From Lachnospiraceae bacterium (GTDB lineage Bacteria; Bacillota; Clostridia; Lachnospirales; Lachnospiraceae): DNA of 64,000 nt. Location: NCBI GenBank assembly GCA_024698345.1, contig JAILRH010000187.1, positions 443-64,442 on the forward strand, read 5' to 3'. A program made the position numbers and the translations under genes. Shown piece by piece: positions 1 to 56,115 of this stretch; the stretch's first letter is position 1; each line of letters opens with the position of its first letter. The notes under the pieces are model-generated. The model was not told the origin of the DNA. It saw nothing but the letters and a program-made list of their open reading frames with translations, and searched no databases.

Positions 1-52
1 TGAAGGTTATCCTGGAAGTTCTTCCGCATCAAAGATTTTATTGAAAAGAATA

Positions 53-81
53 TTGATAAATATATTGGTATCTGATATAAT
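53..81 (+). promoter_or_regulatory. sigma-A-type promoter, leader copy A
   Basis: TTGATA (53-58), 17-nt spacer, extended -10 TGaTATAAT (73-81); same architecture recurs at 52302-52330. Confidence 0.6.
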
Positions 82-108
82 ACATATGTATTTATTTTTT
101 TGGTGTTT

Positions 109-216
109 CCTGACATAAGTTAATTGTCAGGGTAGTTTTTTGGTAGACATTATAAGTTTGCCGGTGGTAATTTCATAAGGCATGTATGTTAACAGCTTGA
201 GAAAGCTGTTTTTTTT
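109..216 (+). promoter_or_regulatory. structured 5' leader with three hairpins, the last an intrinsic terminator (copy A)
   Basis: H1 CCTGACA/TGTCAGG 109-131; H2 GGTAGAC/GTTTGCC (two G-U pairs) 142-162; H3 ACAGCTT/AAGCTGT 192-209 plus T-run to 216; then ATGCCC, A-run, GGAGG 230-234, ATG 242. Homologous copy at 52359-52465. Confidence 0.6.
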
Positions 217-241
217 ATGCCCAAAAAAAGGAGGAAGCGCT

Positions 242-409
242 ATGGATAAGATTTTAATTCAAGGTTGCGATCTTGCGGTAGAGGTTGGTGCAAGAGCAAA
301 AGTGTTGGTTAATGGCCAGTGGTTATTAACTAGCAAAGTATTAGAAGTTGTAAGAGCAGGAGCTTATGTTGAGATAACAACAAAGAATCATGTTTATGCA
401 ACTAAGTAG
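242..409 (+). CDS. small hypothetical protein (55 aa)
   Basis: ATG 242 lies 7 nt after GGAGG. The ORF-track start at 182 lies inside the leader terminator, so the start was moved. Confidence 0.5.
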   Translation: MDKILIQGCDLAVEVGARAKVLVNGQWLLTSKVLEVVRAGAYVEITTKNHVYATK

Positions 410-433
410 TCAATCATATCGGCGAGAAAGAAA

Positions 434-471
434 GGAGGAAGGGAGCTGCTAAGCGGCTCCCGATTTTATTT
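434..471 (+). promoter_or_regulatory. SD-hairpin-AUG translation-initiation element (1 of 6)
   Basis: GGAGG 434-438, 2 nt, stem GGGAGCTGC/GCGGCTCCC 441-461 (loop TAA), 10 nt GATTTTATTT, ATG 472. Confidence 0.55.
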
Positions 472-2142
472 ATGAGAATTGAAAAAAGAGAATTAAGAGA
501 ATTTGATTTTTCATTTACTGGATTTACTAATGCAATAGTAAAAACTGCAGAAGCAGTAGAAGAGAACCTGATGTCATACTTTGACAACGATAAACGTATT
601 CAATCGCTTGCCAAGGAGAAGATGGGTAAGGTTGTTAGGTCAGAAAGTGTATTTGTTGGGTTAAAGATAAGTAGATGTTGCGATTCTTTATTTAGCACGC
701 TCCGTTATTTAGCGGCAGCCTGTAAGTATTATAAGAAAGAAGTGATATCATTACTTAATAACGATTTAGATACGCTCAATGGCAGGCTTGCAAAACATGA
801 CATAGAAATAAGTGAATTAGTCGGAAGAGGATTGGAGGCTGATATAGCAAGAAGTAAATCGAAAACAGGTTACACTAAATTATTTTGTGCAGAGATAGTA
901 AAAGATGATGTAATTTACTATCAGTATGGTTCAGATGTTGGAACTAAATCTAAAGCTGTTGAGAGAAGTTGGTGCAGTACGAGTACCGGCGAAGTAGCTC
1001 AGGCAACAGATATAGTTAACCTTGTATGTCTGTGTTTCCTTATTGATGATATTAATAAGGAATTAAAAAAGAGTATATATGAGGATGTAGATTTGTTGAG
1101 TGACTATCTGAGTGTGTATGATATTTATGTATTATACAGGACTTCAAAGCAGGAAGACATATTACCATTTCTTGATTTGCCAATGTTTGGTAGTGATGAT
1201 ATTGCCAAACAGATATTAGGTGAGAAGGCTAGAAACATTAGAATTCTTGATGATAATTATATCAGAATGGTATGTGACAGACATTTTGAGCTTATTCCAC
1301 GAAAAGATACAGTAAGCTTCAAACGGAAGTATGTTGCTGATGATGTAACATTGTTGTACTTCTTAGACAATTATCGGTTTCTGATGAAGATTGACAGAAT
1401 AATTAAGACTTTATGCGTCAGAGCAGAGGCAAGGGAACGAAACTATAAGCATGAGCATACGGTTTCGGGTGATTACGCAAGAAGTTTTCAGACAAAAAAG
1501 AATATTCCAAATGCGACAGTAAAAGCGATGAAAAATTCAAGATTCAATAATTTCTTTGGATTTGTTGAGTTTGATGAGCTTGTCGATTTGAAGAAGATTG
1601 AAGAGATTGAAAAGGAATTTGAAGCTTTCAATCTTTTTTTGTTTGGAGAAAAAGGATTGGTTACTAAGAATGTTGAACTTAGATTCAGACGTCTTGGAAA
1701 TCATAAGGCAGCGGGTTTATATTATCCGTTTTTTAACTGTATCTGTATTGATATTAATAATCCTGGTAGTTTTGTACATGAGTACGGGCACATGCTTGAC
1801 TATACGAATGGCAATGCATCGGAAAAGGCTGAGTTTTACTCGCTTAGAGAATTGTATTGTGATGCAATGAAAAGAGCGGTAAAAGAACAGGATATAAAGC
1901 TTAAGGGTAAATACAATATGGATTACTATTCAACACCTACCGAGGTGTTTGCAAGGTGTTTCGAACTGTATATGTTTTACTGCAGAAAGATGTCAAACAA
2001 TATCTTGAAAGACATCGATGGTTTTGCATATCCAAATGACGAATTGTTTTTGAAACATGTCGATAAGTACTTTACAGCATTCTTTGAGAAATATTCAAAG
2101 AAGGAGAGTATTGGAGGTGAACAGAAATGTGCATCTACATAA
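472..2142 (+). CDS. HExxH zincin-like metallopeptidase-domain protein (556 aa), function unknown
   Basis: Long ORF. C-terminal FVHEYGHMLDY (HExxH) followed by TPTEVFARCFELY, reminiscent of ArdC/SprT-type and polyvalent-protein metallopeptidase modules of mobile elements. Confidence 0.55.
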   Translation: MRIEKRELREFDFSFTGFTNAIVKTAEAVEENLMSYFDNDKRIQSLAKEKMGKVVRSESVFVGLKISRCCDSLFSTLRYLAAACKYYKKEVISLLNNDLDTLNGRLAKHDIEISELVGRGLEADIARSKSKTGYTKLFCAEIVKDDVIYYQYGSDVGTKSKAVERSWCSTSTGEVAQATDIVNLVCLCFLIDDINKELKKSIYEDVDLLSDYLSVYDIYVLYRTSKQEDILPFLDLPMFGSDDIAKQILGEKARNIRILDDNYIRMVCDRHFELIPRKDTVSFKRKYVADDVTLLYFLDNYRFLMKIDRIIKTLCVRAEARERNYKHEHTVSGDYARSFQTKKNIPNATVKAMKNSRFNNFFGFVEFDELVDLKKIEEIEKEFEAFNLFLFGEKGLVTKNVELRFRRLGNHKAAGLYYPFFNCICIDINNPGSFVHEYGHMLDYTNGNASEKAEFYSLRELYCDAMKRAVKEQDIKLKGKYNMDYYSTPTEVFARCFELYMFYCRKMSNNILKDIDGFAYPNDELFLKHVDKYFTAFFEKYSKKESIGGEQKCAST

Positions 2143-2320
2143 TTGATAAAGAAACGAGAGAAACATATTCGTGTATTGATGAAGAAAAAGCCATAAACAC
2201 TGTACGTATATTGGCAGATTCAAAAGAAGAAGCGCAAGAGCAGTTGGAAATAATTGGTGATTTTGACCGATTGTTTGAAAAAGCATTTGAATTCAGGATT
2301 TAAAAAGGAGGACGGTTATT

Positions 2321-2947
2321 ATGTTAAATAACTCATATATACATTGTTTAATGGGAGGCAGTATCAAACTTAATGAGAGCGATATTGTAAAAATTGATGG
2401 TATTAATTTATGTGCGGGAGTAAAGTATGGAGTTCCATATGAATACCGCATTTATAAGTCATTGAGAATAGAAATTAAAAGGGATGGGAGAGATTTTACT
2501 CCTATTTTAGAGAGTGATGCAACCTATGTGGAACTTGAAGGTATCCTGTATAGTATGCCAATGAATAAGGGAAGTGATTTCAGAAATATTGATATTGCTA
2601 ACCAGAGGGTATTGTTTGAAGAAGATGCGGTAATAATTGAAGCACACAACATGGTAAATGATTGGTATATGCCAACATGCTTCAGAGAAAAATTACCGTT
2701 TCAGATCTATAACAAGCAGATATTCCTTAGTGGACATACTAATGCAGCGGCAAGTGTACGGAAAGTTAAAGGTAAGTTCGAAGTGATAGTGCTTGATAAA
2801 TTACAGGAATATGAACTTGAAAAACTTGGATTGCTTGAAAGTGGTAACAAAGTGCAGAAAGAATTACGTGCTTGGTATCCCGAGGTAATGGTTACTGAAA
2901 TTAGAAGGAGGATTGACAATGAATTCAGAAAATACAGTTATGTATAG
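2321..2947 (+). CDS. hypothetical protein (208 aa)
   Basis: ORF with AAGGAGGA 8 nt upstream of ATG 2321; no motif recognised. Confidence 0.6.
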   Translation: MLNNSYIHCLMGGSIKLNESDIVKIDGINLCAGVKYGVPYEYRIYKSLRIEIKRDGRDFTPILESDATYVELEGILYSMPMNKGSDFRNIDIANQRVLFEEDAVIIEAHNMVNDWYMPTCFREKLPFQIYNKQIFLSGHTNAAASVRKVKGKFEVIVLDKLQEYELEKLGLLESGNKVQKELRAWYPEVMVTEIRRRIDNEFRKYSYV

Positions 2948-3983
2948 TTACAAATGTATGCACAGACCTCCTTCACCGGGAGCTGTGCCAAAGGACGGAC
3001 TTGTAGATGTTAAGGATTTTGACATGCGTGATGAAAGTGGTTGTTACGGAGAGGTTGTTTACAATCGTGCTTTATCAAATAAAGAAGTTTGCGATTACGA
3101 ACTGGAGCCTTTGAAGGAAAAACCAAAAAATATGATGTTTATCAATGCTAAAAAGAGTGATGTAGACAATGCCGTTAAGAGAATTATATGTACAAAGGGT
3201 TTCGGTGAAAACTGCGACTGTGACGCATGTAAAGCTTATGATAACGGTGTTAATCCTGATGTGCTGATAATAGATTGTAAGAATGATGAGCTTGGTGTTT
3301 CTGATTTTAGAGATAAGCTTAAGCATTTTTATTTCAAATCTATTAATATGTCGGCAAATAAGGTGTTGCTTATTGATGGTGCTGATGAATTATCAGATAA
3401 AAAGCAGAACGCATTGCTTAAATTTATTGAGGATTATAACGATAAGGCTGTATTGATTGCTATGGCTGGTGAAGAGAAGAGAGTTCTTAAAACCGTCAGA
3501 TCAAGAGTTTTTGTTAAGAGGTATTCAAGTATACTTGCTTATACTGATTTTTGTGAATACTGCAAGGATAAGGCTATTGATAAGGCAAATATTTATTACC
3601 TTCTTACTGATGGTGATGTAAATGAAATCAAGTCAGTTAATAACGTTGAAATCTATTCAAATCTTATATTGGCAGTAGCAGGGAAGAATGTTGCTGATTA
3701 TTTCAATCTCTTACATATATCCAAAGAAAAGGATAAAGAAGTGATTGTTAATGACAGAAGCAGCATTTTGATGTGTTACAGGCTTATAAGAAATGTACTG
3801 CTCGATTGTTTTCTTGGGAAAATGAATAAAGAGCATATTCTTACAGTTGAAGGTACTGTTTGGAAAACAAAAGAACTTGCAAACAAGATTGTTGAGCTTG
3901 ATCTTGAAATTGAGAAGGTTAGGAACACTAACTCGTACAAAGCGAAGGAGTTTCAGAGCTTCTCGATTAACCTTTTTAGTTAA
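2919..3983 (+). CDS. holB: DNA polymerase III delta'-like clamp-loader subunit with about 70-aa N-terminal extension
   Basis: ATG 2919 lies 7 nt after GGAGG. No P-loop. Zinc module CDCDAC. KVLLIDGADELSDKKQNALLKFIEDYN (cf. ANALLKTLEEP). TVRSRVF (cf. TIxSRC sensor motif). Confidence 0.65.
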   Translation: MNSENTVMYSYKCMHRPPSPGAVPKDGLVDVKDFDMRDESGCYGEVVYNRALSNKEVCDYELEPLKEKPKNMMFINAKKSDVDNAVKRIICTKGFGENCDCDACKAYDNGVNPDVLIIDCKNDELGVSDFRDKLKHFYFKSINMSANKVLLIDGADELSDKKQNALLKFIEDYNDKAVLIAMAGEEKRVLKTVRSRVFVKRYSSILAYTDFCEYCKDKAIDKANIYYLLTDGDVNEIKSVNNVEIYSNLILAVAGKNVADYFNLLHISKEKDKEVIVNDRSSILMCYRLIRNVLLDCFLGKMNKEHILTVEGTVWKTKELANKIVELDLEIEKVRNTNSYKAKEFQSFSINLFS

Positions 3984-4021
3984 TTAGTTAGATAGTGTAT
4001 TATTTTTTAAATTTAAAAGAA

Positions 4022-4055
4022 GGAGGAAGATGTTTATATAACATCGATGTGTATT
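4022..4055 (+). promoter_or_regulatory. SD-hairpin-AUG translation-initiation element (2 of 6)
   Basis: GGAGG 4022-4026, 2 nt, stem GATGTT/AACATC 4029-4045 (loop TATAT), 10 nt, ATG 4056. Confidence 0.5.
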
Positions 4056-4385
4056 ATGAAGAAAGGTTTGAAATTATATAATATTTATTTAGAAAAAGAG
4101 GAGGAAGTATTATTTCGTATCGGAAACTATGACAGCAACGGAAACACATATGTACAGATGATTGGAGCAGATGGAGAGCCTTACGGAGATCTTACTGTTA
4201 ATTTTGAAACATTGAATGACGAGAGAAAGGCTTATATTGATACAAATAATAATCCAGGTATCTTGAAGTTCATTGAAGATAACGAGTTGGGTTTTTGGTT
4301 TGGTCTTGAAAAACAGAGTAATTTTTGTACGTATCCTCTTTATTATTTGGATCTTGAGGAAATTAAAAAATATGTTGTTGAATAG
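4056..4385 (+). CDS. small hypothetical protein (about 109 aa)
   Basis: ORF-track start is 4047. ATG 4056 is preferred by analogy with the fixed 10-nt hairpin-to-AUG spacing at five other genes. Confidence 0.6.
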   Translation: MKKGLKLYNIYLEKEEEVLFRIGNYDSNGNTYVQMIGADGEPYGDLTVNFETLNDERKAYIDTNNNPGILKFIEDNELGFWFGLEKQSNFCTYPLYYLDLEEIKKYVVE

Positions 4386-4397
4386 GAGGAAATGCGA

Positions 4398-5744
4398 ATG
4401 TTATACAACGAAGACAGGCCCTTAAGTCTTGATGAGCTTAGAGGGCATGAGATAAATAAACAAATATTTAGAAGTCAGCTGAAAAATCAGAAGTTTGGAC
4501 ATGCCTATCTGTTTGCCGGACACCATGGCTCCGGTAAAACTACGGTGGCTAGAATTTTTGGACGTGCAGCAGTGTGTGAACATCCAACGGAGAATGGTCC
4601 TTGTATGGAGTGCGAAGCCTGTAAGAGATTTGGTTCATCAATTGACTTTGTTGAGATTGATGCAGCATCAAATACGGGTGTAGATGCCATAAGAGATAAG
4701 GTTATCGAAGCTGTTAAGTACAAGCCGGCAGAATTAAAAAAGAAAATAATTCTTATTGATGAGGTTCATATGCTTTCAACTAGTGCATTCAATGCATTGT
4801 TAAAGACAGTAGAAGAACCGCCGGAGAATGTAATTATTTTTCTTTGTACAACCGAGCTTAATAAAGTTCCAAAAACTATTGTTTCAAGGTGTCAGAAATT
4901 CATTTTCGAGGGGATTCCTCAAAATGAAATTGAAGATGGGGTTTTTGATTCGGCAAAAAAGCATGGAATTGATATTGAACCTGACGCAGTAAGGCTTATT
5001 GCTAAGATTGCTGATGGGTCAATGAGAGATGCTCTTTCTTTGTTGGAACAGGCTTCATCAAGCGGCACTGTTACAGAGTCAATGGTTGCTGAAATGACAG
5101 GCTATGGTTCGGCTATAGCAGTAGAGAGTATTCTTGATGGATATGTGAATGCTGATTACGATTTGATGTTTCAAGGTGTTGAAGAGTTCTTAAGAACGAG
5201 CAGTGTTAATACTCTTATTGAAGCTTTGATGGAAAAACTGATTGACAGAATTGTTACACATGATGGTGTCGATTACATTCCTTTAGTAAACGGATTGTCG
5301 GAAATTAAAGGAAAAAATGTTAGTCAGGCAGCAATTAAGGTGGTTTTATATAAGGTTGGCTGTGAGGAGTCTAAAATAGCTGCTCTTGAAAAGAGAGTGA
5401 GCGAACTTGAAGAAGCATTGAAGAACGGAGTTGTTATTAGCAGTGATAGTGCTGAGGTTGTGACAGAAGATGTTCCAAGCAAAGTAGCAAACGAAGGTGT
5501 AAATGACGTTTCTGGGGCAGAAAGTGAAGCCAAGGGAACAAATACACCGGATAAGGATGAACGTAGCGAAGATGAGCTGTTAGAGGCGCTTAATGCTGCG
5601 GGATTTAGTGATGTTACAGTAGCGGAAGAAAATCCTTTTGAGGAACCAGTAGAAGTACCTGTTGTAAAGGAAGAAAAGGTTGTAGAAAAGAAGAAAGAAC
5701 CTGAAACTAAATTTCCGGGTTTTTCTTCACCCTGGGATTGGTAG
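4398..5744 (+). CDS. dnaX: DNA polymerase III gamma/tau subunit
   Basis: Walker A GHHGSGKTT, zinc module CMECEACKRF, Walker B ILIDEVHML, sensor TIVSRCQKF, acidic/Lys-rich C-terminal tail. ATG 4398 is 8 nt from GGAGG; the ORF-track ATG 4392 is only 2 nt away. Confidence 0.9.
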   Translation: MLYNEDRPLSLDELRGHEINKQIFRSQLKNQKFGHAYLFAGHHGSGKTTVARIFGRAAVCEHPTENGPCMECEACKRFGSSIDFVEIDAASNTGVDAIRDKVIEAVKYKPAELKKKIILIDEVHMLSTSAFNALLKTVEEPPENVIIFLCTTELNKVPKTIVSRCQKFIFEGIPQNEIEDGVFDSAKKHGIDIEPDAVRLIAKIADGSMRDALSLLEQASSSGTVTESMVAEMTGYGSAIAVESILDGYVNADYDLMFQGVEEFLRTSSVNTLIEALMEKLIDRIVTHDGVDYIPLVNGLSEIKGKNVSQAAIKVVLYKVGCEESKIAALEKRVSELEEALKNGVVISSDSAEVVTEDVPSKVANEGVNDVSGAESEAKGTNTPDKDERSEDELLEALNAAGFSDVTVAEENPFEEPVEVPVVKEEKVVEKKKEPETKFPGFSSPWDW

Positions 5745-5766
5745 TCTAAAAGGCTACCAGGATAAG

Positions 5767-5952
5767 TTGGCTTTATTGGTTGAAGATGCGGCTTTCCTTA
5801 AGCCTTTGGTTAAAAGATTGCGATACAAACAAGATAAAGAAGGAAATATTCATATTTGTGCACGATACAGATGTGTTGCAGAGATGATTAATCTTTTTGA
5901 TGTTTCAGAAATCGGAATTGACAAAATCGAGGTTGATGAAAGCCTGTTTTGA
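5767..5952 (+). CDS. doubtful small ORF (61 aa, TTG start, no SD)
   Basis: Only an open frame with protein-like composition between dnaX and the next SD-hairpin element. Confidence 0.25.
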   Translation: MALLVEDAAFLKPLVKRLRYKQDKEGNIHICARYRCVAEMINLFDVSEIGIDKIEVDESLF

Positions 5953-5965
5953 TATTTGTAAGAAA

Positions 5966-6003
5966 GGAGGACGGAGATACATTTTGTATCTCCTATATTT
6001 ATT
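5966..6003 (+). promoter_or_regulatory. SD-hairpin-AUG translation-initiation element (3 of 6)
   Basis: GGAGG 5966-5970, 2 nt, stem GGAGATAC/GTATCTCC 5973-5993 (loop ATTTT), 10 nt TATATTTATT, ATG 6004. Confidence 0.55.
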
Positions 6004-6354
6004 ATGAGTTTAATGGATATTATTTTTGGTTTAATGGAAAAAGCAGTGAATGCATATCATCATTCAGTCTATGTCAGAACAGACGTGGGCGGTGCTTACG
6101 AAGTATTCTTCTGGTTTAGCTTAATTGCTTTTGAGTGTATTGGTTTTACATATCTTGATGGATTCAAGAAAAGAGATGAGGTCTGGACCGTAATCATTTG
6201 TGTGTTATGGTGGCCGGCTTTAATTATTGGATTTACATACAGGAAGGCTGTACATGCAGTACATGATGCTTTACTTAAGTATGTTACAAAGCGAAAGAGA
6301 AGAAATGTAAGAAAATACAGAAAGGTAGGAAGCAGAAGTTATGCTGGAGAATAA
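6004..6354 (+). CDS. small membrane protein with basic tail (116 aa)
   Basis: Two to three hydrophobic helices (FFWFSLIAFECIGFTYL, VIICVLWWPALIIGFTY) then KRKRRNVRKYRK. Confidence 0.55.
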   Translation: MSLMDIIFGLMEKAVNAYHHSVYVRTDVGGAYEVFFWFSLIAFECIGFTYLDGFKKRDEVWTVIICVLWWPALIIGFTYRKAVHAVHDALLKYVTKRKRRNVRKYRKVGSRSYAGE

Positions 6355-7393
6355 TTTTTATCAGAGTACACAGAATATAGCGAAGGCGGGTGCTTACTAT
6401 ACAGATCTTGCACATTGTGCAAGACTTTCACAGGCATTTAATTGGCCTGAAGGGGAAGTGTCCGTTTTAGAGCCTAGTGCTGGAGATGGTGCAGCAGTTA
6501 TTGAGATAACAAATAATTGCGACAAGCCTAAAATTTTTGCTGTTGAGCTTCGTACAGAAGCATTCAGAGAGCTGAAAAATAATAGCAATATAACATGTGC
6601 TATAAATTGTGATTTTTTACAGGCGAAAATTTCAAATAATGTGTTTTCGTTTATGTTTGCAAATCCACCATATATAAACGGTATGGACGGAAGAATGGAA
6701 GTAGAGTTTTTACAACGTTCGACAAGATATATCGCGGAGGATGGAATTATAGTGTATGTAGTTCCTTATTCAGTGGCTACCAGTCGTGAATACTTGAGCT
6801 TTTTGCTTAGAAATTACAAAGTGATTCATGCGTTTCGTTTTGATGAAGCAGAGTATGAGAAGTATAAGCAGATAGTATTTATTGCTAGGAAGGTAAAGAA
6901 TGAGGGAATAGAGGAAGAGCTTCAAAGATATATGGCAATGAGAAAAGAAGATTTTCCATTGATTCCGGAGGTTTGGACTGATGAATACGAACTTGTTGAT
7001 GTAGAAGAAAGCCCTGAAAGTAAAATAGTTTACTTTTCGTCAAAGGAATTCAATAGGGAGGAAGCTTTTATTGATTTGTGTGAATGTGAGCCTCAGAAGA
7101 AAAATTTGGATGCCTTGAGTATCAAAGCATTTTCTGCTAATGATATGGGACGTCCACCGGTAATGCCTAATCAGAATGTGTTGTATTTACTTTCGACACT
7201 CGGTTGTGGTTCGGGTATTACTGGATCAGAAGATAATATGGATATTCATTTACAGCGAGGTAATGCAAGAATATGCGAGTATTCATTTGAAGAGGTTAAC
7301 GAAAAGGGTAATGTTGAAGCTGTTACTCAGAGGAGTACTAAAGTATCTGTAACGATATTGGAAAATGACGGGACATTTACAGTGCTTGAATAA
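6341..7393 (+). CDS. N6-adenine DNA methyltransferase (orphan)
   Basis: Motif I VLEPSAGDGA and motif IV FANPPY; no restriction endonuclease gene adjacent. Confidence 0.8.
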   Translation: MLENNFYQSTQNIAKAGAYYTDLAHCARLSQAFNWPEGEVSVLEPSAGDGAAVIEITNNCDKPKIFAVELRTEAFRELKNNSNITCAINCDFLQAKISNNVFSFMFANPPYINGMDGRMEVEFLQRSTRYIAEDGIIVYVVPYSVATSREYLSFLLRNYKVIHAFRFDEAEYEKYKQIVFIARKVKNEGIEEELQRYMAMRKEDFPLIPEVWTDEYELVDVEESPESKIVYFSSKEFNREEAFIDLCECEPQKKNLDALSIKAFSANDMGRPPVMPNQNVLYLLSTLGCGSGITGSEDNMDIHLQRGNARICEYSFEEVNEKGNVEAVTQRSTKVSVTILENDGTFTVLE

Positions 7394-7407
7394 TAAATAT
7401 TAAAGAA

Positions 7408-7447
7408 GGAGGAAAGGAGTCGCATTTTGCGGCTCCTGATTTGTGAA
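7408..7447 (+). promoter_or_regulatory. SD-hairpin-AUG translation-initiation element (4 of 6)
   Basis: GGAGG 7408-7412, 3 nt, stem GGAGTCGC/GCGGCTCC 7416-7436 (loop ATTTT, one G-U), 11 nt, ATG 7448. Confidence 0.55.
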
Positions 7448-10400
7448 ATGGAATTTAGTATAGGGTTTCAGACGATTTCATTAGATTTTGCAGTGGTTGC
7501 GAACGAGAAAGGCTATGTATACTCAATTTTTGACAGATCCGCAATGATGGTAAGAAGCATGGCGGTTCAGGCATCATTCGATTCGGTAGCTATTGAAGGG
7601 AAAACCTATGGTGTTCCAAGAAATTCAGAAGGTGATAGTTACAAGACTAAAAGATACATTGAAAGGTTCGAAAGTGGTAGGGACAGAGTTTCATCAGCGC
7701 TTATAGTCAATGGAGCTATAGGTGAAAAAGTATTTTTGACTGATGATAAAGGTAAATATGATGATTTCTACAACTTTCTTATGAACAACTATACCTTACC
7801 GTTGCTTAAAGAGTGGTCGGGCTATCTTTATGATGGTCTTGTTCGTTCTTATTTTGTAAGTGAATACAGGAATGCTGTTATTGGTGAGAGACTTGAAAGA
7901 GAGATTACTCTTAATGGCAGAAATATTAGACTTGATGAAATGATTCTTGTTGATTGCAGCAGTCTTGATGAGGAATTTCTTAAGCGACAGGTAAGTACGG
8001 GACTTTCAAGTAAGAAGATTTGTATTACCGAGTTACCGGTTAAAAAACTTGAATTTGAAAATCTTGATGAGTATTACCAGAAGTATGGAAAGAATATCGT
8101 AGAAAACTTAGAAAGGGTTATCGATCCTTTGAATGAGATTGATGGCTATTGTCCGTATGTTGCTACAAAGTCGAAAAGACTTTTTCCGGCACAGGCTAAT
8201 GGTGTTAATGCTTATATTAAAAAGTTTGAAACATCAAATGGTGCCATAGCCAATATGGATATGGGTACTGGAAAAACACTGCAGGCGTTAACAACCTTTG
8301 ACGGCTTTTTTAATAAAAAGCAGATGAGTCAGGGGAAGACACTTAAACAGGTGATTGATGAAGATTGCGTTAATTATGTTGGTGCAGTCCTTTGTCCGTC
8401 GCATTTGGTTAGCAAATGGGTAAGTGAGGTCAGTGAATTGCCTAATGCTCACGCAGAAGCAGTTACTTCGTTGGCTCAGCTTATTAAGATTAACGAAAAC
8501 AGAAACTTATACAAAAAGGGAAAGCATATTTTTGTTTTCTCTAAAGATTTTGCAAAACTTGGGGATATGAGGGCGCCAATTCCTACTACGGTAAGTCGTG
8601 TGTTGAGAGCCCCTTATGTTCAGTATTGTGTTGATTGTCATAAGAATACTGGCAATTACAGGTACAGGCAGTTTGGTGACAGAGTATGTAGGCATTGTGG
8701 TGGAAATAATTGGAGAAAATCATTATCAAGAGAGGTGTCGGGTAATGCAGTTCTTTGTCCTCATTGTAATGAGGTTTTAATTAAGAACACAACTAAAAAG
8801 ATTGACAAAAACAGTTATCCGGAGATTCTTACTCCTGTTGATTTTTCAAGTGAAACTTCTGCTAACAGAAAATGTTACAACTGTTTAAATCCTCTTTGGG
8901 GAGCCCAGGTAAAAAATAAAGGAGACGGTTATAAATACAAGTGGAAAAAACTTGGATATTATACCAATAAAAGCCGAAAAGGAACGAGTACAGCTTGGAT
9001 TCTTGACGGTTTTAAGAGTAGCTTCATGTCAGTAAAGAACTTGAAAGAGGATGAAGTGTGGGAATCATCTAATATAGGTGTAAGAAAGTATTCGCCTGCA
9101 AGATATATTCAAAAACACATGAAAAACTTTTTTGACTTTTTTATTGCGGACGAAGCTCATATGTATGAATCATCATCTGCACAGGGACAGGCATTTGCTT
9201 CGCTTGCGAAAGTGTCAAAGAAGACTTTGGCACTTACAGGAACACTGACTAACGGTTATGCAAAAGGCTTGTTTTATCTGTTTTGGAGAATAATACCTCA
9301 GAAAATGGTTGATATGGGGTATGAATTTTATGGCAGAGATGGTGTAGGAAAGTGGAATTACACATATGGTGTTTTAGAGAAGAGAACTGAGTATACGGAA
9401 GAAGAACTTAAATACAATACTTCATCTCGCGGGAAAAAAGACTCTGGGATGTTTAAAGAAAGACCGGGTGTTTCACCGCGGCTTATGAAGGATTTTCTTT
9501 TAGAAGATGTAATTCAGTTACAGATTTCAGACTTGAGTGAGGGGCTGCCTGAACTTAAGGAAGAGATTGTGTCTGTTGAGCCTGAGAAAGAAGTAGTAAG
9601 TAGTCTTAATTCGCTTACGAATACACTTAAGAATTGGGCCAGCAATAATAAATGCCCTGCAATTAATATTGCAGCTTTAAGGTACCAGCTTTTTTATACC
9701 GATCAGCCGTATGACATACCACCAATATTAAGTCCTTTAACGAGGGGGGATATAGTAGCTGCACCGGATAATTATCCTGATTTGGTGGCAAATGGAGGTT
9801 TGTTAAAGAAGGAAATAAAACTTGTTGAAATCGTAAAGAAAGAGCTTGAGGAAGGAAGAAGATGTTATGTGTTTTTGGAAAATACAGGTAAATCGGAATT
9901 TTTCCTCTTAAAACGTATTAAAAAGGTTTTGGAAGAAAATGTTCCTTGTGCTAAGCCTCTCATTATGGAAGCCAATTCAACTTCTGCAAGTAAAAGAGAA
10001 GACTGGATGAAAAATAAGATTGAGAAGGAAAAGTACAATATTGTTATTTCTAACCCAAGACTTGTTGAAACAGGAATCGATTTTGTGTGGAAAGCAAAAA
10101 ACGGTGAGGGTTATAACATTCCAACAATTGTATTTTATCAGGTAGGTTGGTCGCTTGCTACTTTATGGCAGGCATCAAGAAGACACTACCGTTTGATACA
10201 GAAAGAACAGTGTCGTACATATTATATTGTGTGCGAAGGAACTATGCAGCTTGAATGTCTTCAGATGATGGCAGAAAAACAGGTTGCTGTGTCGGCCATT
10301 CAGGGCGGCGAGTTCTCATCAAGAGGACTTTCGTCTATGGCAAAAGGTGTTGACCCAAAGATTGAGCTGGCAAAAAGAATGCTCGCAGGTGAGCATTCAG

Positions 10401-10684
10401 ATGTGGATGATGTAAAGGAAATGTTTAAAAATATTTCCTTGAGTGGAAGCCGGTCATGGGATTGCAAACAGAATTTGTTGATTTCAGATATTACTACTAC
10501 TGTAGTAAAGACGGCAGAAAAACCAAGTTTGTTTGACGAATCTACATGGGGCGATGAATGGTTTGCATCGTTCTTTGGATCTATAAAAGAAGAATTTGAA
10601 AATGAAAAGAGTAAAAGCAAATCAAAGAAAAGAAAGGAGAAGAATAAACTCGAACAGTTAACACTCTTCGATTTATTCGAGTGA
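7448..10684 (+). CDS. SNF2-family helicase with zinc-ribbon insertions
   Basis: Motif I DMGTGKT, motif II FIADEAHMY, motif III LTGTLTNG, motif VI QASRRHYRLIQ. Four CxxC pairs (CVDCHK, CRHCGG, CPHCNE, CYNCLN). The ORF-track TTG 7427 lies inside the hairpin, so ATG 7448 is used. Confidence 0.85.
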   Translation: MEFSIGFQTISLDFAVVANEKGYVYSIFDRSAMMVRSMAVQASFDSVAIEGKTYGVPRNSEGDSYKTKRYIERFESGRDRVSSALIVNGAIGEKVFLTDDKGKYDDFYNFLMNNYTLPLLKEWSGYLYDGLVRSYFVSEYRNAVIGERLEREITLNGRNIRLDEMILVDCSSLDEEFLKRQVSTGLSSKKICITELPVKKLEFENLDEYYQKYGKNIVENLERVIDPLNEIDGYCPYVATKSKRLFPAQANGVNAYIKKFETSNGAIANMDMGTGKTLQALTTFDGFFNKKQMSQGKTLKQVIDEDCVNYVGAVLCPSHLVSKWVSEVSELPNAHAEAVTSLAQLIKINENRNLYKKGKHIFVFSKDFAKLGDMRAPIPTTVSRVLRAPYVQYCVDCHKNTGNYRYRQFGDRVCRHCGGNNWRKSLSREVSGNAVLCPHCNEVLIKNTTKKIDKNSYPEILTPVDFSSETSANRKCYNCLNPLWGAQVKNKGDGYKYKWKKLGYYTNKSRKGTSTAWILDGFKSSFMSVKNLKEDEVWESSNIGVRKYSPARYIQKHMKNFFDFFIADEAHMYESSSAQGQAFASLAKVSKKTLALTGTLTNGYAKGLFYLFWRIIPQKMVDMGYEFYGRDGVGKWNYTYGVLEKRTEYTEEELKYNTSSRGKKDSGMFKERPGVSPRLMKDFLLEDVIQLQISDLSEGLPELKEEIVSVEPEKEVVSSLNSLTNTLKNWASNNKCPAINIAALRYQLFYTDQPYDIPPILSPLTRGDIVAAPDNYPDLVANGGLLKKEIKLVEIVKKELEEGRRCYVFLENTGKSEFFLLKRIKKVLEENVPCAKPLIMEANSTSASKREDWMKNKIEKEKYNIVISNPRLVETGIDFVWKAKNGEGYNIPTIVFYQVGWSLATLWQASRRHYRLIQKEQCRTYYIVCEGTMQLECLQMMAEKQVAVSAIQGGEFSSRGLSSMAKGVDPKIELAKRMLAGEHSDVDDVKEMFKNISLSGSRSWDCKQNLLISDITTTVVKTAEKPSLFDESTWGDEWFASFFGSIKEEFENEKSKSKSKKRKEKNKLEQLTLFDLFE

Positions 10685-11847
10685 TTATTATGAAGATGAA
10701 GATGAATGATATGGTGAATGCAGTTAATAAAGTTTCAGTAACAAAGGCAGATATAACAATGAATTGTAAAGAAGGGGCGGTAATTCTTGCATCAACTGAT
10801 GTTGCATCTGGAATTGAGGTTCAGAGCAGATTTGGTGCAACAGATGTTAAAGAGGAAAAAGTCTTTTATCTCCCATGTTCAATCAAGGAAGGGCTTGTGG
10901 CTCTTTCTTCGGCTGGAGATGAAGTGGCAATTGAGGAACTTACAGGTTCAGTTAAATTTTTAGCAGGACAGGCGGATATTTCGGTTGGTAAGCTTGCAGA
11001 GCAGCCCGCAGGAATTCTTGTGGGTGAACCTTATGCAGCTTATCAGTTTTCCGGTAAAGAGTTTGTTAATGCGATGAATGTGATAAGCAGTGTTGCCAGA
11101 AAAGGCGGAGAAACATTTACATGCTGTTATTGCTTGATTAAAGGCGATACTTTGGAAGTGTTTGGTACTGATGGTAACAGAATGGTTAAGAACAAAATGA
11201 GAGTTTTGCAGCAGCAGATTAGAGATGATAAAGCATTTATTGATTCAACAGTTATTGTTTACGATAAGGATACGCAGAATCTTGGCTTTGCTATAGATCA
11301 TGAAATTTGGAAAAAAATTTCTTCTGCTTGCAGTCCTGAGTTTGTTCAGCTTTACGTTTGTGAAAAGCAGGTAAGACTTTCATGGAAAGACTCAGTTTTT
11401 GTATTGCCATTGTATGACACAGACAAATTAATATCTATAAATGGAGTTTGTGACTCTACATGTGAAGAAAAAGATGGTGATGTAGTGTTCGAACTGAATA
11501 TTGCTGACTTCTATAATGCAGTTAACATTGTATCAGTTGTCAATGAGGACAAGCGTGTATCTCTTAAGGCAAAAGGTAAAAATCTTACAGTTAAGTCATT
11601 GAATGGAAGTGCTAAGCTTGCTATTAATGATGTGGGCGAAGGATTTAGCGGTGATTATAATGTTGATTATTTGAAGGAACATCTTAGTTTTATAAAGTCA
11701 ACGGAAAAAACCGCAGTAAAGGTGGCCACTTCAAACAAATGTATGATTTCGTTAGATGCGTTATTAGATTATACTTATGGGTCTGATAATGGAGAAGTTG
11801 TGCAGCAGGTTGAAGTTGTGCAGGCTATTATGCCAGTAAAAGAATAA
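10681..11847 (+). CDS. dnaN: DNA polymerase III beta sliding clamp-like protein
   Basis: About 385 aa. LASTDVASG (cf. LTGTDLEME), VFGTDGNRMV (cf. VATDGHRLA), YNVDYLKEHL (cf. FNVSYVLDVL), C-terminal AIMPVKE (cf. VVMPMRL). GTG 10681 overlaps the upstream stop (GTGA); alternative ATG at 10690. Confidence 0.75.
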   Translation: MIIMKMKMNDMVNAVNKVSVTKADITMNCKEGAVILASTDVASGIEVQSRFGATDVKEEKVFYLPCSIKEGLVALSSAGDEVAIEELTGSVKFLAGQADISVGKLAEQPAGILVGEPYAAYQFSGKEFVNAMNVISSVARKGGETFTCCYCLIKGDTLEVFGTDGNRMVKNKMRVLQQQIRDDKAFIDSTVIVYDKDTQNLGFAIDHEIWKKISSACSPEFVQLYVCEKQVRLSWKDSVFVLPLYDTDKLISINGVCDSTCEEKDGDVVFELNIADFYNAVNIVSVVNEDKRVSLKAKGKNLTVKSLNGSAKLAINDVGEGFSGDYNVDYLKEHLSFIKSTEKTAVKVATSNKCMISLDALLDYTYGSDNGEVVQQVEVVQAIMPVKE

Positions 11848-11866
11848 GGCTTGTCAAGAAGTTAAT

Positions 11867-11902
11867 ATCACAGTTGTACATATTGTGCAACTGTGATACA
11901 AT
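11867..11902 (+). promoter_or_regulatory. promoter overlapped by 14-bp-arm palindromic operator
   Basis: ATCACAGTTGTACA (11867-11880) TAT TGTGCAACTGTGAT (11884-11897), one T-G mismatch. TTGTAC 11874-11879, 17 nt, TGaTACAAT 11894-11902. Confidence 0.5.
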
Positions 11903-11925
11903 ATAAAAAGAAAGGAGGAAAGCGT

Positions 11926-12351
11926 ATGGCAGAATTTTTTTCGGGACGCTGTGATGCGGAAACAAAAAGACGTTTTAGCGACTTGTTTGACGAAGAAGAG
12001 TTGTCTTTTGGCGATAAAATTAATATAATGCTTGACAGTTATGAAGAGTTGCATAAAAATCATCATCCTGATCCAATAGGTTTGAAAGTGTCTATGAATT
12101 CGATGAAGAGAAGTTTTGAAAATTCACTTCTTCAATTAGATGAAATGGAACGTTTGTATAATACTTTTGCAAATAAACTTTCAGATGTTGCTAATGTATC
12201 GGAGCTTAAGGCTGAGAATAAGGCTATAAAGTCCGAAAATGCAAAACTACGTCAGGAGTGCAATTCGCTTAAAAATGAATTAAAAAAATGTGAAGCAGAA
12301 TATAAAGATGCTGTACGTGCACTGATTTCGCTTGAGCAAAAGATTAAGTGA
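11926..12351 (+). CDS. coiled-coil protein, possible ribbon-helix-helix-like N-terminus
   Basis: ATG 11926 follows AAGGAGGA. The C-terminal two thirds are heptad-like (KAENKAIKSENAKLRQECNSLKNELKKCEAEYK). Confidence 0.55.
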   Translation: MAEFFSGRCDAETKRRFSDLFDEEELSFGDKINIMLDSYEELHKNHHPDPIGLKVSMNSMKRSFENSLLQLDEMERLYNTFANKLSDVANVSELKAENKAIKSENAKLRQECNSLKNELKKCEAEYKDAVRALISLEQKIK

Positions 12352-12372
12352 AACGGTGATTAGATAAAAATT

Positions 12373-12828
12373 ATGAATAAGGTTATTTTAATGGGTCGAT
12401 TAACTAGAGACCCTGAAATTAGATATTCTCAGTCGGGAGATGGCCAGTTGGCAATTGCCAGATATACATTAGCCGTTGACCGCAGATTTAAAAGAGATGG
12501 TGATCAGCAGACAGCAGATTTCATTTCATGTATTGCATTTGGCAAACAGGGAGAATTTGCTGAGAAGTACTTACATCAGGGAACAAAGATGGTTGTCGAG
12601 GGAAGAATCCAGACAGGCAACTATACAAATAAAGAAGGCCAAAAAGTATATACAACAGATGTTGTGGTTGAAAACTCGGAATTTGCAGAGAGTAAAGCTT
12701 CAGCATCGAGTGTTGGAGTAAGTGTAGGTTTTAAGGGACAGACACCTCCGCAGCCAACATCAAATGTTGGTGATGGCTTCATGAATATACCAGATGGTGT
12801 AGAGGACGAAGGATTACCTTTCAATTAA
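12373..12828 (+). CDS. ssb: single-stranded DNA-binding protein
   Basis: MNKVILMGRLTRDPEIRY OB-fold start, Gly/Pro/Gln-rich linker, acidic tail DEGLPFN. Confidence 0.9.
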   Translation: MNKVILMGRLTRDPEIRYSQSGDGQLAIARYTLAVDRRFKRDGDQQTADFISCIAFGKQGEFAEKYLHQGTKMVVEGRIQTGNYTNKEGQKVYTTDVVVENSEFAESKASASSVGVSVGFKGQTPPQPTSNVGDGFMNIPDGVEDEGLPFN

Positions 12829-12834
12829 TAATTA

Positions 12835-12860
12835 GCCTCGCATTTGCGGGGCTTTTTTTT
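12835..12860 (+). terminator. intrinsic terminator after ssb
   Basis: GCCTCGC ATTT GCGGGGC stem-loop followed by T8. Confidence 0.8.
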
Positions 12861-12872: not shown

Positions 12873-12921
12873 TTTTGAGAAAATAAGATGTTAAGAAAGA
12901 TAAATATCATTGGAGGTAAGG

Positions 12922-15900: not shown

Positions 15901-16335
15901 GAAAAAGGTTTGTTTGAATTGGTTATTGCAAAAGGAGTAGGGCTTGAGAATAACATTGTATGTGATTCCTTTGGAGCAAGAAGTACTATTGAGAATGATA
16001 TCGCCAAAGAAGTAAACTGCACCATTAAGATTGAAAAATATCTCATTGATGCAGGTATCGAATACAATGATGAAGGGGAAATACTGAAAGAACTTGATAC
16101 TGCAACAAAGACAGATGCAGTTCATAAGGCGATATCTTTATTATTAAAGTGCTTTAATGACGAAGCAGGTGGAAGATATTACATATCGCCTTGTGGAGAA
16201 CACTTTACTTTATATGATACCCCTGAAGTATTATCTGCAATCAACTATTACATACGAAGTCAATACATAAGGAGACAGATTGTAGAAGGTGTAAAAAAAG
16301 TAGACTACAAGAAAATAATTCTACTTGCAGGATAA
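12922..16335 (+). CDS. cas12a: Cas12a (Cpf1)-family type V-A effector with substituted RuvC-I/Nuc residues
   Basis: ATG 12922 lies 5 nt after GGAGG. KTICQKLIPMGKT N-terminus; WED His/Lys/Lys triad region; RuvC-II AILVLEQ. RuvC-I reads LVVTRSNEHLLY instead of IGIDRGERNLLY. A canonical Cas12a-type repeat array follows immediately downstream. Confidence 0.9.
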   Translation: MGSNLDLFRNRTIQTKTICQKLIPMGKTRETIEKYNLMEIDRKIAENKELMNKLFSLIAGKHINDTLAKCTDLNFIPIFEGITALNQAKENNRDNLRDYYDTVFEARKSVAEEISSRLIELKFAGKDFFTKIIPDFLEKYNGKDKNEMSELVSLVVENTATAGYVKKLEKIDNSMGVKLVSGTVVKRVLTDNTDIYEKNIAHTRNFDYGVLQIEESTQFMTLDWKDYSNYITADGIALYNAIIGKINLALNEYCQKNKEYSFNKLALLPLQKMLYGEKTSLFEKLEDFSSDDELINAYNSFIKTVNDCKIAENIKKTIPSYDEIMIKTNKINYYSNVITGQWSAVNRAMKDFLEDNGIKNADKYMEKGLTASEIEDALEHKNIKHTDFISNLITDLGHTYAEIKENKESLKKDDSLNSVIIKKELDKLLSVLQNLKVLDVDNEIFDTGFGIEVSKTIEVLGFGVPLYNKIRNYITRKPDPKKKFLTKFGSATIGTGLTTSVEGSKRATFIKDGDAVFLLLYNGYGCKANNISVSNLAAIINSELRDTNNGNSYQKMIYQTPGDIKKQIPRVFVYKSEDEELIKDFKAKLHKTDLSFLNERLIPYLKEAFANHETYKNYKFSYKNSYESYDEFCEHMSEQAYILEWQWIDKKLIDDLVEDGSLLMFRVWNRFMKKKDGKISKHAKIINELFSERNTSNAAIKLLSVFDIFYRDKQIDNPIVHKAGSTLYNKRSKDGEVISDYSSMVKNKEKRENVYTTTKKYDIIKDRRYTEEQFELHIHVQLGKEENKEILETSKLINEKKNTLVVTRSNEHLLYAVVFDENDNILLKKSLNTVKGMNFKSKLEAVEIQKKENMQSWKTVGSNHALMEGYLSFAIKEIADLIKEYDAILVLEQNSIGKNLLNERVYTRFKEMLLTNLSLDIDYVNNDFYSYTEVGQKVSSWRDSVTNGICIQVPSAYKYKDPTTTYSPVSMYAKTTAEKTKKLKQIKSFKYNREKGLFELVIAKGVGLENNIVCDSFGARSTIENDIAKEVNCTIKIEKYLIDAGIEYNDEGEILKELDTATKTDAVHKAISLLLKCFNDEAGGRYYISPCGEHFTLYDTPEVLSAINYYIRSQYIRRQIVEGVKKVDYKKIILLAG

Positions 16336-16449
16336 ACAATCCTCAGTCTTGATGAGGGAGGAATAGAATTGTATATGTTAAAATGTACAAGTATGAGCTT
16401 TATTGATTATTAGATGATGTAATATTTTGTGCATTTTGACAATATACGA

Positions 16450-16917
16450 GTTAAATTAATAATAAATGTCTACTATACTGTAGATAACTATATTGTTAGG
16501 TATATTGCGTCGTTAAATTAATAATAAATGTCTACTATACTGTAGATAGAGATATGGTTGTGCATAGTATTTCAGTTAAATTAATAATAAATGTCTACTA
16601 TACTGTAGATCTGCTTAGGTCTGTTGCAAATGCAAGAGTTAAATTAATAATAAATGTCTACTATACTGTAGATTTATCCATTGTTAAGTTCTTAATAAAC
16701 TTAAATTAATAATAAATGTCTACTATACTGTAGATTGATAGCAGTTTCCACTGTTTTCTGCGTTGAATTAATAATAAATGTCTACTATACCGTAGATTCG
16801 ATTTGCTTAGACCATCAATAGAGAGTTAAATTAATAATAAATGTCTACTATGGTGTAGATAACTGATAGAGAAAGAGTGAAACAGACTTAAATAAAAATG
16901 TCTATCATAGCATAGTT
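16450..16917 (+). CRISPR. type V-A CRISPR array, 7 spacers
   Basis: 36-nt repeat GTTAAATTAATAATAAATGTCTACTATACTGTAGAT at 16450, 16512, 16575, 16638, 16700, 16762 and 16825, plus a truncated degenerate copy at 16887-16917. Spacers are 26-27 nt. The repeat 3' end forms the Cas12a handle UCUAC-loop-GUAGA-U. Confidence 0.95.
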
Positions 16918-16994
16918 CTCAAATTGATATCGTTTGGCAGAATAATAAAAAATTGCTATTGTGTAGTACGTTTTTTTCAATAATATTTAATGTA

Positions 16995-17154: not shown

Positions 17155-17180
17155 ATGCCCTTATTCAAGGAGGATATTGG

Positions 17181-56109: not shown

Positions 56110-56115
56110 TAGAAA

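Follow-up and report, generated by a model that had tools for sequence, protein, structure and literature searches.

The stretch of DNA analysed here, 64,000 nucleotides (nt) of contig JAILRH010000187.1 (GenBank assembly GCA_024698345.1, Lachnospiraceae bacterium; positions 443–64,442, forward strand) and hereafter called the window, carries two homologous promoter-plus-leader cassettes of ~190 bp each, copy A at 53–240 and copy B at 52302–52492, and probably a divergent third, copy C. Sequence comparison identifies the window as a conjugative plasmid-like element of gut or rumen Lachnospiraceae and places the leader in a widespread, uncatalogued family of related plasmids, so that it is not a private duplication of this one element. 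In copies A and B a strong predicted promoter is followed by a leader with two hairpins, whose base pairing shows the marks of selection, and by a predicted intrinsic terminator directly 5′ of the first gene. Our leading reading, which we hold tentatively and at a little under an even chance, is of a cis-acting leader common to several operons, with read-through that would depend on a factor.

Copies A and B follow a single order of parts: promoter, U-rich 5′ tail, hairpin H1, hairpin H2, terminator with U8, AUGCC, A-run, Shine–Dalgarno sequence (SD) and ATG. Their homology extends from the −35 box to the start codon (85% column identity in an alignment of window 40–260 with 52290–52510; 77% over 197 nt by BLAST), and the exact 15-mer TTTTTTGGTGTTTCC has just two mismatch-free occurrences in the window, one in each copy. 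RNA folding from the predicted start gives H1, H2 and the terminator in both, with z of about −4. A first-pass annotation of this DNA, made from the letters alone, had described two homologous leaders at these places, and we found every part where it had been put. The features of the two cassettes are as follows.

53–81 (+ strand): copy A promoter, with −35 TTGATA at 53–58, a 17-nt spacer, TG at 73–74 and −10 TATAAT at 76–81.
88–108 (+ strand): predicted 5′ end of the copy A leader, with the U-rich 5′ box GUAUUUAUUUUUUUGGUGUUU.
109–131 (+ strand): copy A hairpin H1, CCUGACA, loop UAAGUUAAU, UGUCAGG, from folding and covariation.
141–163 (+ strand): copy A hairpin H2, UGGUAGAC, loop AUUAUAA, GUUUGCCG, with G-U pairs workable on the + strand only.
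164–176 (+ strand): tentative single-stranded box of copy A, GUGGUAAUUUCAU, set by eye against GGGUGCUAUUUUCAG of relatives.
191–216 (+ strand): predicted intrinsic terminator of copy A, AACAGCUU, loop GAGA, AAGCUGUU, in which the hairpin (191–210) overlaps the U8 (209–216).
217–244 (+ strand): AUGCCC of copy A (217–222), A-run, SD GGAGG (230–234) and ATG (242) of a 55-aa open reading frame (ORF).
52302–52330 (+ strand): copy B promoter, with −35 TTGAAA at 52302–52307, a 17-nt spacer, TG and −10 TATAAT at 52325–52330.
52337–52358 (+ strand): copy B U-rich 5′ box, by alignment with copy A.
52359–52381 (+ strand): copy B hairpin H1, CCUAGCA, loop UAAGAUAAU, UGCUAGG, from folding and covariation.
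52391–52413 (+ strand): copy B hairpin H2, UGACAGAU, loop AUGAUAA, GUCUGUCG, from folding and covariation.
52439–52465 (+ strand): predicted intrinsic terminator of copy B, AAGCAGCUU, loop UUAU, AAGCUGUUU, in which the hairpin (52439–52460) overlaps the U8 (52458–52465).
52466–52495 (+ strand): AUGCC of copy B (52466–52470), A-run, SD GGGAGG (52480–52485) and ATG (52493) of a HolA-like gene.

Both promoters match the consensus at 11 of 12 positions, carry the extended −10 TG and align with one another, and the leader start was predicted from the conserved GUAUUUAUUUUAUU..., which lies 5–7 nt downstream of the −10 family-wide. The leaders are AT-rich (GC ~0.3). Their terminator stems are nearly identical and the terminator loops differ; with 8–9 pairs and a U8 on the transcribed strand, both copies have the anatomy of a predicted intrinsic terminator, although the core hairpins reach just ~−8 kcal/mol in A and ~−6 kcal/mol in B despite the U8. 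These folds support the earlier description of a structured RNA leader, transcribed from a strong promoter and carrying a terminator ahead of the first gene. The box GUGGUAAUUUCAU of copy A was placed differently by MAFFT than by eye. An outer helix joining GGCAU, 5′ of the terminator, with AUGCC, past the U-tract, occurs in many minimum-energy folds; a crude shuffle test, with some boundaries mis-set, gave a Fisher p of 0.21, and we do not claim this helix.

Two further observations concern the flanks of the leaders. In the minimum-energy folds of both copies, the U-rich 5′ tail pairs with the complementary post-terminator stretch (93–110 with 217–241 in A; 52344–52356 with 52464–52477 in B), joining GGUGUUUCCU to AGGAAGCGCU, in the SD region, in A and UUUUUUUGGUGU to AUGCCAAAAAAA in B; as modelled, such helices could hide the SD in read-through RNA. 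Just 5′ of leader B, at 52243–52285, lies a perfect 19-bp inverted repeat with a 4–5-nt loop and no T-run, which overlaps the end of an ORF at 51973–52278.

Between copies A and B, 9 of the 30 bases in the H1 and H2 stems differ and all 15 pairs are kept, three of the changed pairs differing on both sides and three on one side via G-U, so the compensatory change noticed in the first-pass annotation is borne out. The chance that every pair would be kept under random substitution is 7e-5 with uniform substitution, 1.3e-3 with a transition bias and 0.03 with transitions only; the A/B covariation is by itself suggestive, not conclusive, and it is the relatives that make the case strong. A three-row alignment of copies A and B with the leader of one related locus (L022), fitted by a covariance model (R1) itself derived from two of its rows, has 98.7% of its cells paired, as against 34–44% with slid partners, and six pairs changed on both sides, as against 0–1 in the slid controls; in H1, five of the seven pairs change on both sides among the three sequences. 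With pairing kept between A and B and in the L022 alignment, and with well-positioned hairpins that outscore shuffles in the 16 representatives described below, sequence comparison indicates that pairing in the leader is under selection, as had been proposed. The loops had been taken to be constant as well, and here the proposal did not hold: with 2 of 16 loop bases differing as against 20 of 76 unpaired bases overall, the loops show no significant excess of conservation over the other unpaired parts.

The wider family emerged from relatives of the LPD1 protein encoded by the operon of copy A, for which we recovered 210 homologues and fetched 100 related loci. In L001, L007, L008, L021 and L022, the orthologous LPD1 gene is preceded by a leader with the window's part order (promoter, GUAUUU...-type U-rich start, hairpin, hairpin, long terminator, U7–8, AUGC/U, SD); the stems of these leaders are completely unlike the window's. 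With model R1, which derives from A and B, the L022 leader scores 35 bits (E 1e-4 to 7e-6), and H1 and H2 of L001 and L007 align with those of the window; another R1 match, L007:20834–20951, is merely an operon-end terminator and was rejected. A regex-plus-fold scan of the 100 related loci returned 76 leader-like sites, 50 of them unique, in 46 loci, with as many as four sites in a 20-kb locus (L037, for example, has them at 7640, 8829, 14724 and 20044). Among 16 representatives with different stems, the best two hairpins always fall at leader nt ~20–45 (H1) and ~47–80 (H2), and their scores exceed those of dinucleotide shuffles (p 0.001–0.2 each; Fisher 1e-13, the representatives being not fully independent). 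Compared pairwise, paralogues and orthologues showed 34 single and 25 double changes that keep pairing, and 34 broken pairs, many of the latter stemming from sequence-only misalignment.

A second model, R2, was made from 12 leaders of the L037 type with the window sequences excluded. It recovers copy A at 88–221 with 34.9 bits (E 1.4e-3 in 1.37 Mb) and aligns to copy B at 52337–52470 with 23.4 bits (E 0.23), a score not significant alone, at boundaries identical to those set independently; 62 of its 65 matches lie on the gene strand. Plasmids of the L037 type have a separate leader copy before each of the LPD1, DnaX-like and DUF6094 methyltransferase genes, and further copies head LPD16, UvrD-like and unknown genes. 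Throughout the family the initial transcribed sequence is U-rich, H2 has a GU-rich stretch at its base and the U-tract is followed by AUGC; the two hairpins are constant in position but not in sequence. A box after H2 is conserved as well, GGGUGCUAUUUUCAG in the L037 type, and tentatively corresponds to GUGGUAAUUUCAU in copy A. In the L037-type leaders, UGCUAUUUU might be read as boxA-like, which is a lead only; the window copies diverge from it. The first-pass annotation had proposed a covariance-model search, in which a lack of additional homologues would have told against the element; the search found them in many related plasmids.

Alignment across subfamilies called for some care. MAFFT failed to register H1 and H2 there, and RNAalifold then showed the terminator only, so covariance-model-guided and per-sequence hairpin analyses were used instead; an nhmmer iteration started from the promoter and 5′ box was dropped after it had drifted into a single subfamily. 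Searches of catalogued sequences returned no member of the family: Rfam 15 gave no gathering-score match in the whole window and only chance-level matches at E ≤ 10 on window 1–480, exact-pattern scans of genome and viral collections with the H1 region gave none, and neither did BLAST against PLSDB with the window or the leaders. Twelve IMG/VR pattern matches were attributed to chance, none scoring with R2. The sole Rfam match in seven related loci is an unrelated RAGATH-18 RNA (RF03064, 66 bits) at L022:12172–12246, inside the syntenic operon, which has no window counterpart at gathering score. In the L037-type plasmids, a mini-ORF of 13–19 codons (for example MAKKNLERRDCRW) stands between the leader and the DnaX-like gene (L037:14933–14974, L077:9065–9125, L079:15325–15385); its end overlaps the SD and start of that gene, an arrangement that suggests translational coupling.

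With G-U and A-C pairs allowed symmetrically, the stems of 32 leaders contain 81 G-U as against 9 A-C pairs (56:9 in the hairpins and 25:0 in the terminators). Base composition predicts 77% G-U, and the excess is significant overall (p 9e-4) and less strongly so in the hairpins alone (p 0.04). In template-strand DNA folds of copies A and B, the −35 and −10 boxes lie outside any conserved long duplex, by which a single-strand promoter of the Frpo kind was ruled out. Because of the G-U excess, the template-strand folds and the strand-specific U-tracts together, RNA of the + strand is the best-supported functional form.

The probable third copy was recognised by its architecture and motifs only.

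16959–17183 (+ strand): probable divergent copy C, from a promoter-like site to the start codon of the first TrbC-like pilin gene.

Its promoter-like site has −35 TTGTGT (16959–16964), a 16-nt spacer and −10 TAATAT (16981–16986), and GUAUUG follows at ~16992, 5 nt past the −10. The leader of ~170 nt holds one internal hairpin, a terminator-like hairpin at 17086–17111 followed by U5, and a second one at 17121–17150 followed by UUUUAUGCCC (17151–17160), with the SD at 17167–17173 and the ATG at 17181; its fold z is −4.6. The motif TTTTATGCC occurs three times in the 64-kb window, each time at the end of leader A, B or C, and the three operon heads terminate in UUUUAUGCC and an SD. Similarity to A or B is absent at the BLAST and covariance-model level. 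These motifs make copy C probably a third member of the family, heading the type IV secretion system (T4SS) operon. The idea that one RNA element could serve two replication loci holds in that the element is shared by operons, and needs widening in that these are not limited to two and probably include the T4SS operon. A further unit, at 61050–61225, comprises a promoter (TTGATA-17-TATAAT), a leader of ~100 nt, a terminator at 61169–61190 with a T-run, an SD and an ATG at 61222; it precedes an unannotated 712-aa ORF and shares no sequence relationship with leaders A and B. Intergenic DNA at 60500–61220 (720 nt) is AT-rich with many inverted repeats and may hold an origin of replication or transfer.

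As to mechanism, the distance from the end of the U-tract to the ATG is 25–27 nt, with the SD alone in between, which leaves no room for a promoter, and the downstream genes would therefore need read-through. We propose that transcription from a strong promoter of the sigma-A type yields a leader RNA of ~130 nt, composed of a U-rich single-stranded 5′ tail, H1, H2, a short conserved single-stranded box and an intrinsic terminator with U8. Most transcripts would end at that terminator, the operon being made by read-through polymerases only. Since copies head the anti-restriction/clamp-loader operon, the HolA-like/E2/JAB operon and probably the T4SS operon, one signal could set them together. 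The decision would lie with a trans-acting factor, or with an elongating polymerase altered after recruitment through the hairpins, the boxes or the initial transcribed sequence of the leader, and the mode would be antitermination rather than classical alternative-structure attenuation. Conjugation and establishment operons laden with terminators and under dedicated control are known from Firmicutes plasmids (PMC8191782, PMC8708921, PMC11658703, PMC13401043).

A trans factor or modified polymerase is the likeliest agent because the leader has no competing antiterminator helix. When 13 leaders were folded without the 3′ arm of the terminator, its 5′ arm gained just −0.4 to −6.3 kcal/mol from other partners, with no conservation of that pairing, and most folds, those of copies A and B among them, retained H1 and H2. 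This result excludes classical attenuation, a riboswitch-type switch and a zipper attenuator. We found no ligand- or tRNA-binding core of the riboswitch or T-box kind, hairpin stems and loops varying freely within the family, and the riboswitch-like role once suggested for the leader is accordingly dropped. A leader peptide is not indicated either: the short ORF that opens at the transcription start lacks an SD and does not stay in frame from A to B. An antisense promoter was considered in copy A, where a site ATGAAA-16-TATAAT lies at 176–149, in the H2 loop, and was rejected; copy B has no counterpart among the sites listed for it, the strongest 60 of 106, and the L037-type leaders, inspected by eye, have no well-spaced equivalent. 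The pCF10-type antisense control that had been offered as a parallel thus finds no support.

Several points weigh against factor-dependent read-through or against parts of the case for it. Transcription start, termination and read-through are all predictions. The A/B covariation taken alone drops to the p of 0.03 given above when only transitions are allowed, and the pre-terminator energy z averages −1.4 on the + strand and −3.0 on the − strand; these z-scores fail to tell the strands apart, as shuffles of the U/G-rich + strand fold well too. As for a trans factor, NusG/KOW, ANTAR, CAT_RBD and Q-like domains are absent among the window ORFs searched, many ORFs being without annotation. The weak hairpins of A and B (~−6 to −8 kcal/mol) could just leak without regulation; their weakness fits leakiness or a NusA dependence like that of a LoaP-controlled leader (PMC12691694). 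Several relatives' leader terminators have stems of 14–17 bp, and such stems resist conAn antitermination in pLS20 (PMC10325885), a point against a process of the conAn kind.

The main rival explanation, doubtful in our judgement and still the most serious one, builds on that weakness: a constitutive leaky terminator or insulator that damps output and blocks upstream transcripts, with hairpins that stabilise the RNA and no factor at all. Neither an antiterminator structure nor a regulator was found, insulation between operons would be useful where genes lie on one strand among many terminator-like sites (16 against 6.7 expected in 1–20 kb), and EGeRS1 of pLS20 does stop upstream read-through (PMC8708921). 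However, an insulator placed past an operon's own promoter cuts that operon too, whereas ordinary insulators precede the promoter; the 5′ box, the pair of positioned hairpins and the single-stranded box, conserved family-wide, exceed the needs of a passive terminator; and many relatives' terminators are strong (−16 to −25 kcal/mol) and without relief would nearly silence essential plasmid genes. We regard as unlikely a self-sufficient RNA antiterminator like put or canT, in which H1 and H2 would make their own polymerase terminator-resistant in cis, with no protein, and only transcripts from the cassette promoter would pass. Two positioned hairpins just past strong promoters, at several sites per element and covarying between sites, would suit it, as would the terminator-like hairpins inside operons (441–461 and 5973–5993, for example), and conjugative elements of Firmicutes do use cis-acting RNA antiterminators, as canT shows (PMC11658703). 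Docking on a conserved polymerase surface is nevertheless hard to square with H1 and H2 stems and loops that are not conserved; transcripts arriving from upstream would hold H1 and H2 too, leaving no promoter specificity; and canT (452 nt) and conAn2 are far larger (PMC11658703, PMC8191782), conAn2 also lacking sequence similarity.

The remaining two explanations are much less probable. A promoter, a structured RNA and a long-U terminator are also the anatomy of a small RNA gene, and attenuator-derived RNAs are able to act in trans (PMC6614838), so that the cassettes might be stand-alone genes for a terminated RNA of ~130 nt whose place before operons is incidental; this is very improbable given an SD and ATG within 25–27 nt of the U-tract with no promoter between, in the relatives as well, and a cassette that is always co-oriented and directly 5′ of a gene, as the strand bias of the R2 matches illustrates. 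Slimmer still is the prospect of a DNA-level element, either operators for a dimeric repressor (compare the Reg sites of p576) or a single-stranded-DNA, Frpo-like promoter or priming site. The cassette does sit among establishment-type genes of a conjugative plasmid, on one strand, and there are precedents both for repeated regulatory sequences before establishment operons (PMC8708921) and for single-strand promoters in leading regions (PMC11541004). Half-sites that differ between copies of one plasmid while symmetry is kept are not what operators would show, the great excess of G-U over A-C makes the template strand fold worse, and beside the template-strand result given above stands a canonical double-strand promoter. 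Factor-dependent read-through accordingly remains our preferred reading. In its boldest form it would be a new antitermination regulon, in which one plasmid or host factor, or the leader RNA, reprograms polymerases started at the cassettes, processively and at multiple sites, in a manner distinct from conAn, canT, put, LoaP and Q; we put this forward as a possibility on the doubtful side. Were it true, a family of Lachnospiraceae conjugative plasmids from gut and rumen would switch on its clamp-loader/anti-restriction, HolA/E2/JAB and T4SS operons together, for example just after entry into a new host.

The long ORFs of the window are all on the + strand, and the two operons headed by copies A and B are these.

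242–12828 (+ strand): operon of copy A, with the 55-aa orphan ORF, LPD1/HExxH, DarA_C-delta′, DUF4313, DnaX, DUF6094 methyltransferase, SNF2 helicase and single-stranded DNA-binding protein (SSB) genes.
52493–59883 (+ strand): operon of copy B, with HolA-like delta, Prok-E2_D, JAB+PcfM, ThiF-like E1 and unknown genes.

The gene order of the copy A operon recurs in relatives. The first-pass annotation had copy A heading an operon that begins with the HExxH gene; the operon stands, but its first gene is the orphan 55-aa ORF (242–409), followed by a GC-rich hairpin at 441–461, with the LPD1/HExxH gene starting only at 472. That hairpin is GGGAGCTGC TAA GCGGCTCCC, and the relatives lack this 242–461 insert. 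PDB and PHROGs searches with the 55-aa ORF gave no match, its AlphaFold model was unusable (predicted local distance difference test score 53), and a k-mer search found no homologues of it or of the HolA-like protein; both window proteins searched match only short contigs of GCA_016648615.1. Copy B does lie directly 5′ of the gene that had been called HolA-like, and the identity of that gene as HolA is weakly supported, its match to TIGR01128 (E 1.2e-9) falling under the curated cut-off.

The syntenic relatives encode Rep3, ParA and a TraG-like coupling protein, and beyond the CRISPR array of the window lie genes for TrbC-like pilins, a VirB4-like ATPase, a lysozyme/NlpC-P60 protein and adhesins. 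The element has its own clamp-loader set (2913–5744 and 52493–53299), consisting of DarA_C fused to delta′, DnaX and, 47 kb away, the HolA-like delta, together with an SSB gene at 12373–12828; no clamp or polymerase was recognised among the window proteins. The delta′–DnaX pair is kept in the related Rep3/ParA plasmids L001, L007 and L008. At 53550–59032, Prok-E2_D, a JAB domain fused to a PcfM-like end and a ThiF-like E1 form a ubiquitin-like conjugation module as found on mobile elements. Window 12910–16860, which lies between the establishment-type and T4SS operons, holds a Cas12a-like gene (1141 aa; RuvC_1, Cpf1 REC2 and PI-like domains) and a CRISPR array (16449–16860; seven repeats, repeat GTTAAATTAATAATAAATGTCTACTATACTGTAGAT, period 62–63); the gene has its own TGgTATAAT promoter-like site past a terminator at 12834–12853. 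Terminators with 14-bp stems lie at 46390–46420, at the end of an adhesin gene, and at 53356–53387, after the HolA-like gene.

Conjugative plasmids of gut Firmicutes carry genes through the microbiome, and how their genes are timed has been worked out in just a few models from Bacillus and Enterococcus. The leader family offers a compact marker of operons that would be controlled together, covering a clamp loader, an orphan methyltransferase, an SNF2 helicase, polyvalent-protein domains and probably the transfer machinery. Should a factor control read-through, the family would provide a new handle on plasmid establishment and transfer, and synthetic biology in anaerobes would gain a new small antitermination or attenuation module; with constitutive termination, the covariance model would still serve to annotate promoters and operon starts in otherwise unannotated metagenomic plasmids.

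Among known systems of Firmicutes plasmids, a leader terminator is the control point in the rep leaders of pIP501 and pT181 and in prgQ/Anti-Q of pCF10, all of which depend on a convergent antisense promoter and on a leader that can fold in an alternative way; the cassette differs from such countertranscript attenuation in having an antisense site in copy A only (for copy B, among the strongest 60 of 106 sites) and no alternative fold. The put element of phage HK022 comprises two sites per genome, each of two stem-loops. As the cassette RNA might, put and canT (Tn916, PMC11658703), cis-acting structured RNAs 3′ of promoters, let the polymerase pass terminators, but neither is known to come directly with a terminator of its own as a fixed unit before an SD; canT measures ~450 nt, and the hairpin sequences of the cassette vary. 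The zipper attenuator cATT of pLS20 (PMC13401043) likewise places a leader terminator close to the promoter of a conjugation operon, with hairpins upstream. It differs in having an upstream stem-loop complementary to the terminator and a long central stem that extends into the antiterminator, in a leader of 456 nt, and the 13 truncated leader folds contain no such complementarity to the terminator.

The conAn system of pLS20-type plasmids (PMC8191782, PMC10325885) shares with the window its setting, a Firmicutes conjugative plasmid with long one-strand operons punctuated by terminators, and an RNA near the operon start that makes the polymerase terminator-resistant, as the cassette RNA could. 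It is, however, a single system at the start of the conjugation operon, a gene for the ConAn1 protein followed by the large conAn2 RNA, whereas the cassette is a short leader with its own terminator, repeated at several operons 5′ of the first gene. A tblastn search with pLS20 ConAn1 (L114:2564–3082) gave best E values of 2.8 (window) and 1.0 (related loci), and so detected no homologue of the system that the first-pass annotation had drawn on as a parallel; the family is poorly conserved according to its authors, which makes this BLAST absence weak evidence. The conAn2 region has no similarity to the leaders. Long-stem terminators resist conAn antitermination in pLS20 (PMC10325885), and the window stems at 46390–46420 and 53356–53387 are this long.

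The leader of the LoaP-dependent difficidin operon (PMC12691694) comes nearer, combining a small essential hairpin, a NusA-dependent intrinsic terminator and a dedicated read-through factor with no alternative structure, and the hairpins and weak-stem terminator predicted for the cassette are compatible with this type. It needs a NusG paralogue encoded nearby and occurs in single copy, before antibiotic synthesis operons; by Pfam, no such paralogue (NGN and KOW) is present among the ~60 window ORFs searched, many of the ORFs being unannotated. EGeRS1 of pLS20 and EGeRS2 of p576 (PMC8708921) are likewise homologous sequences repeated directly 5′ of the ribosome-binding sites of several operons on one conjugative plasmid, a placement shared by A, B and probably C and, with up to four sites per locus, by the relatives. 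EGeRS operons carry anti-restriction and establishment-type genes and are transiently expressed once the plasmid has entered the recipient, EGeRS2 holds a strong promoter, and the highly structured EGeRS1 stops read-through in one orientation (PMC8708921). EGeRS1 is, however, 420–750 bp long, GC-rich and without a constitutive promoter, whereas the cassette is an AT-rich unit of ~190 bp with promoter, two hairpins and terminator, and EGeRS2 acts through heptamer repeats (TTATCCC) bound by a ribbon-helix-helix (RHH) repressor (PMC8708921). None were noticed on reading both cassettes, with no search aimed at them, and EGeRS was compared by description only. Having failed the conAn, zipper, Frpo, countertranscript and Rfam tests, the cassette is best classed as a promoter-proximal termination-control leader of conjugative plasmids, from an uncharacterised family. 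By analogy, its closest counterpart in logic is the EGeRS of pLS20 and p576, and its closest in anatomy is the hairpin-plus-terminator leader of the LoaP type.

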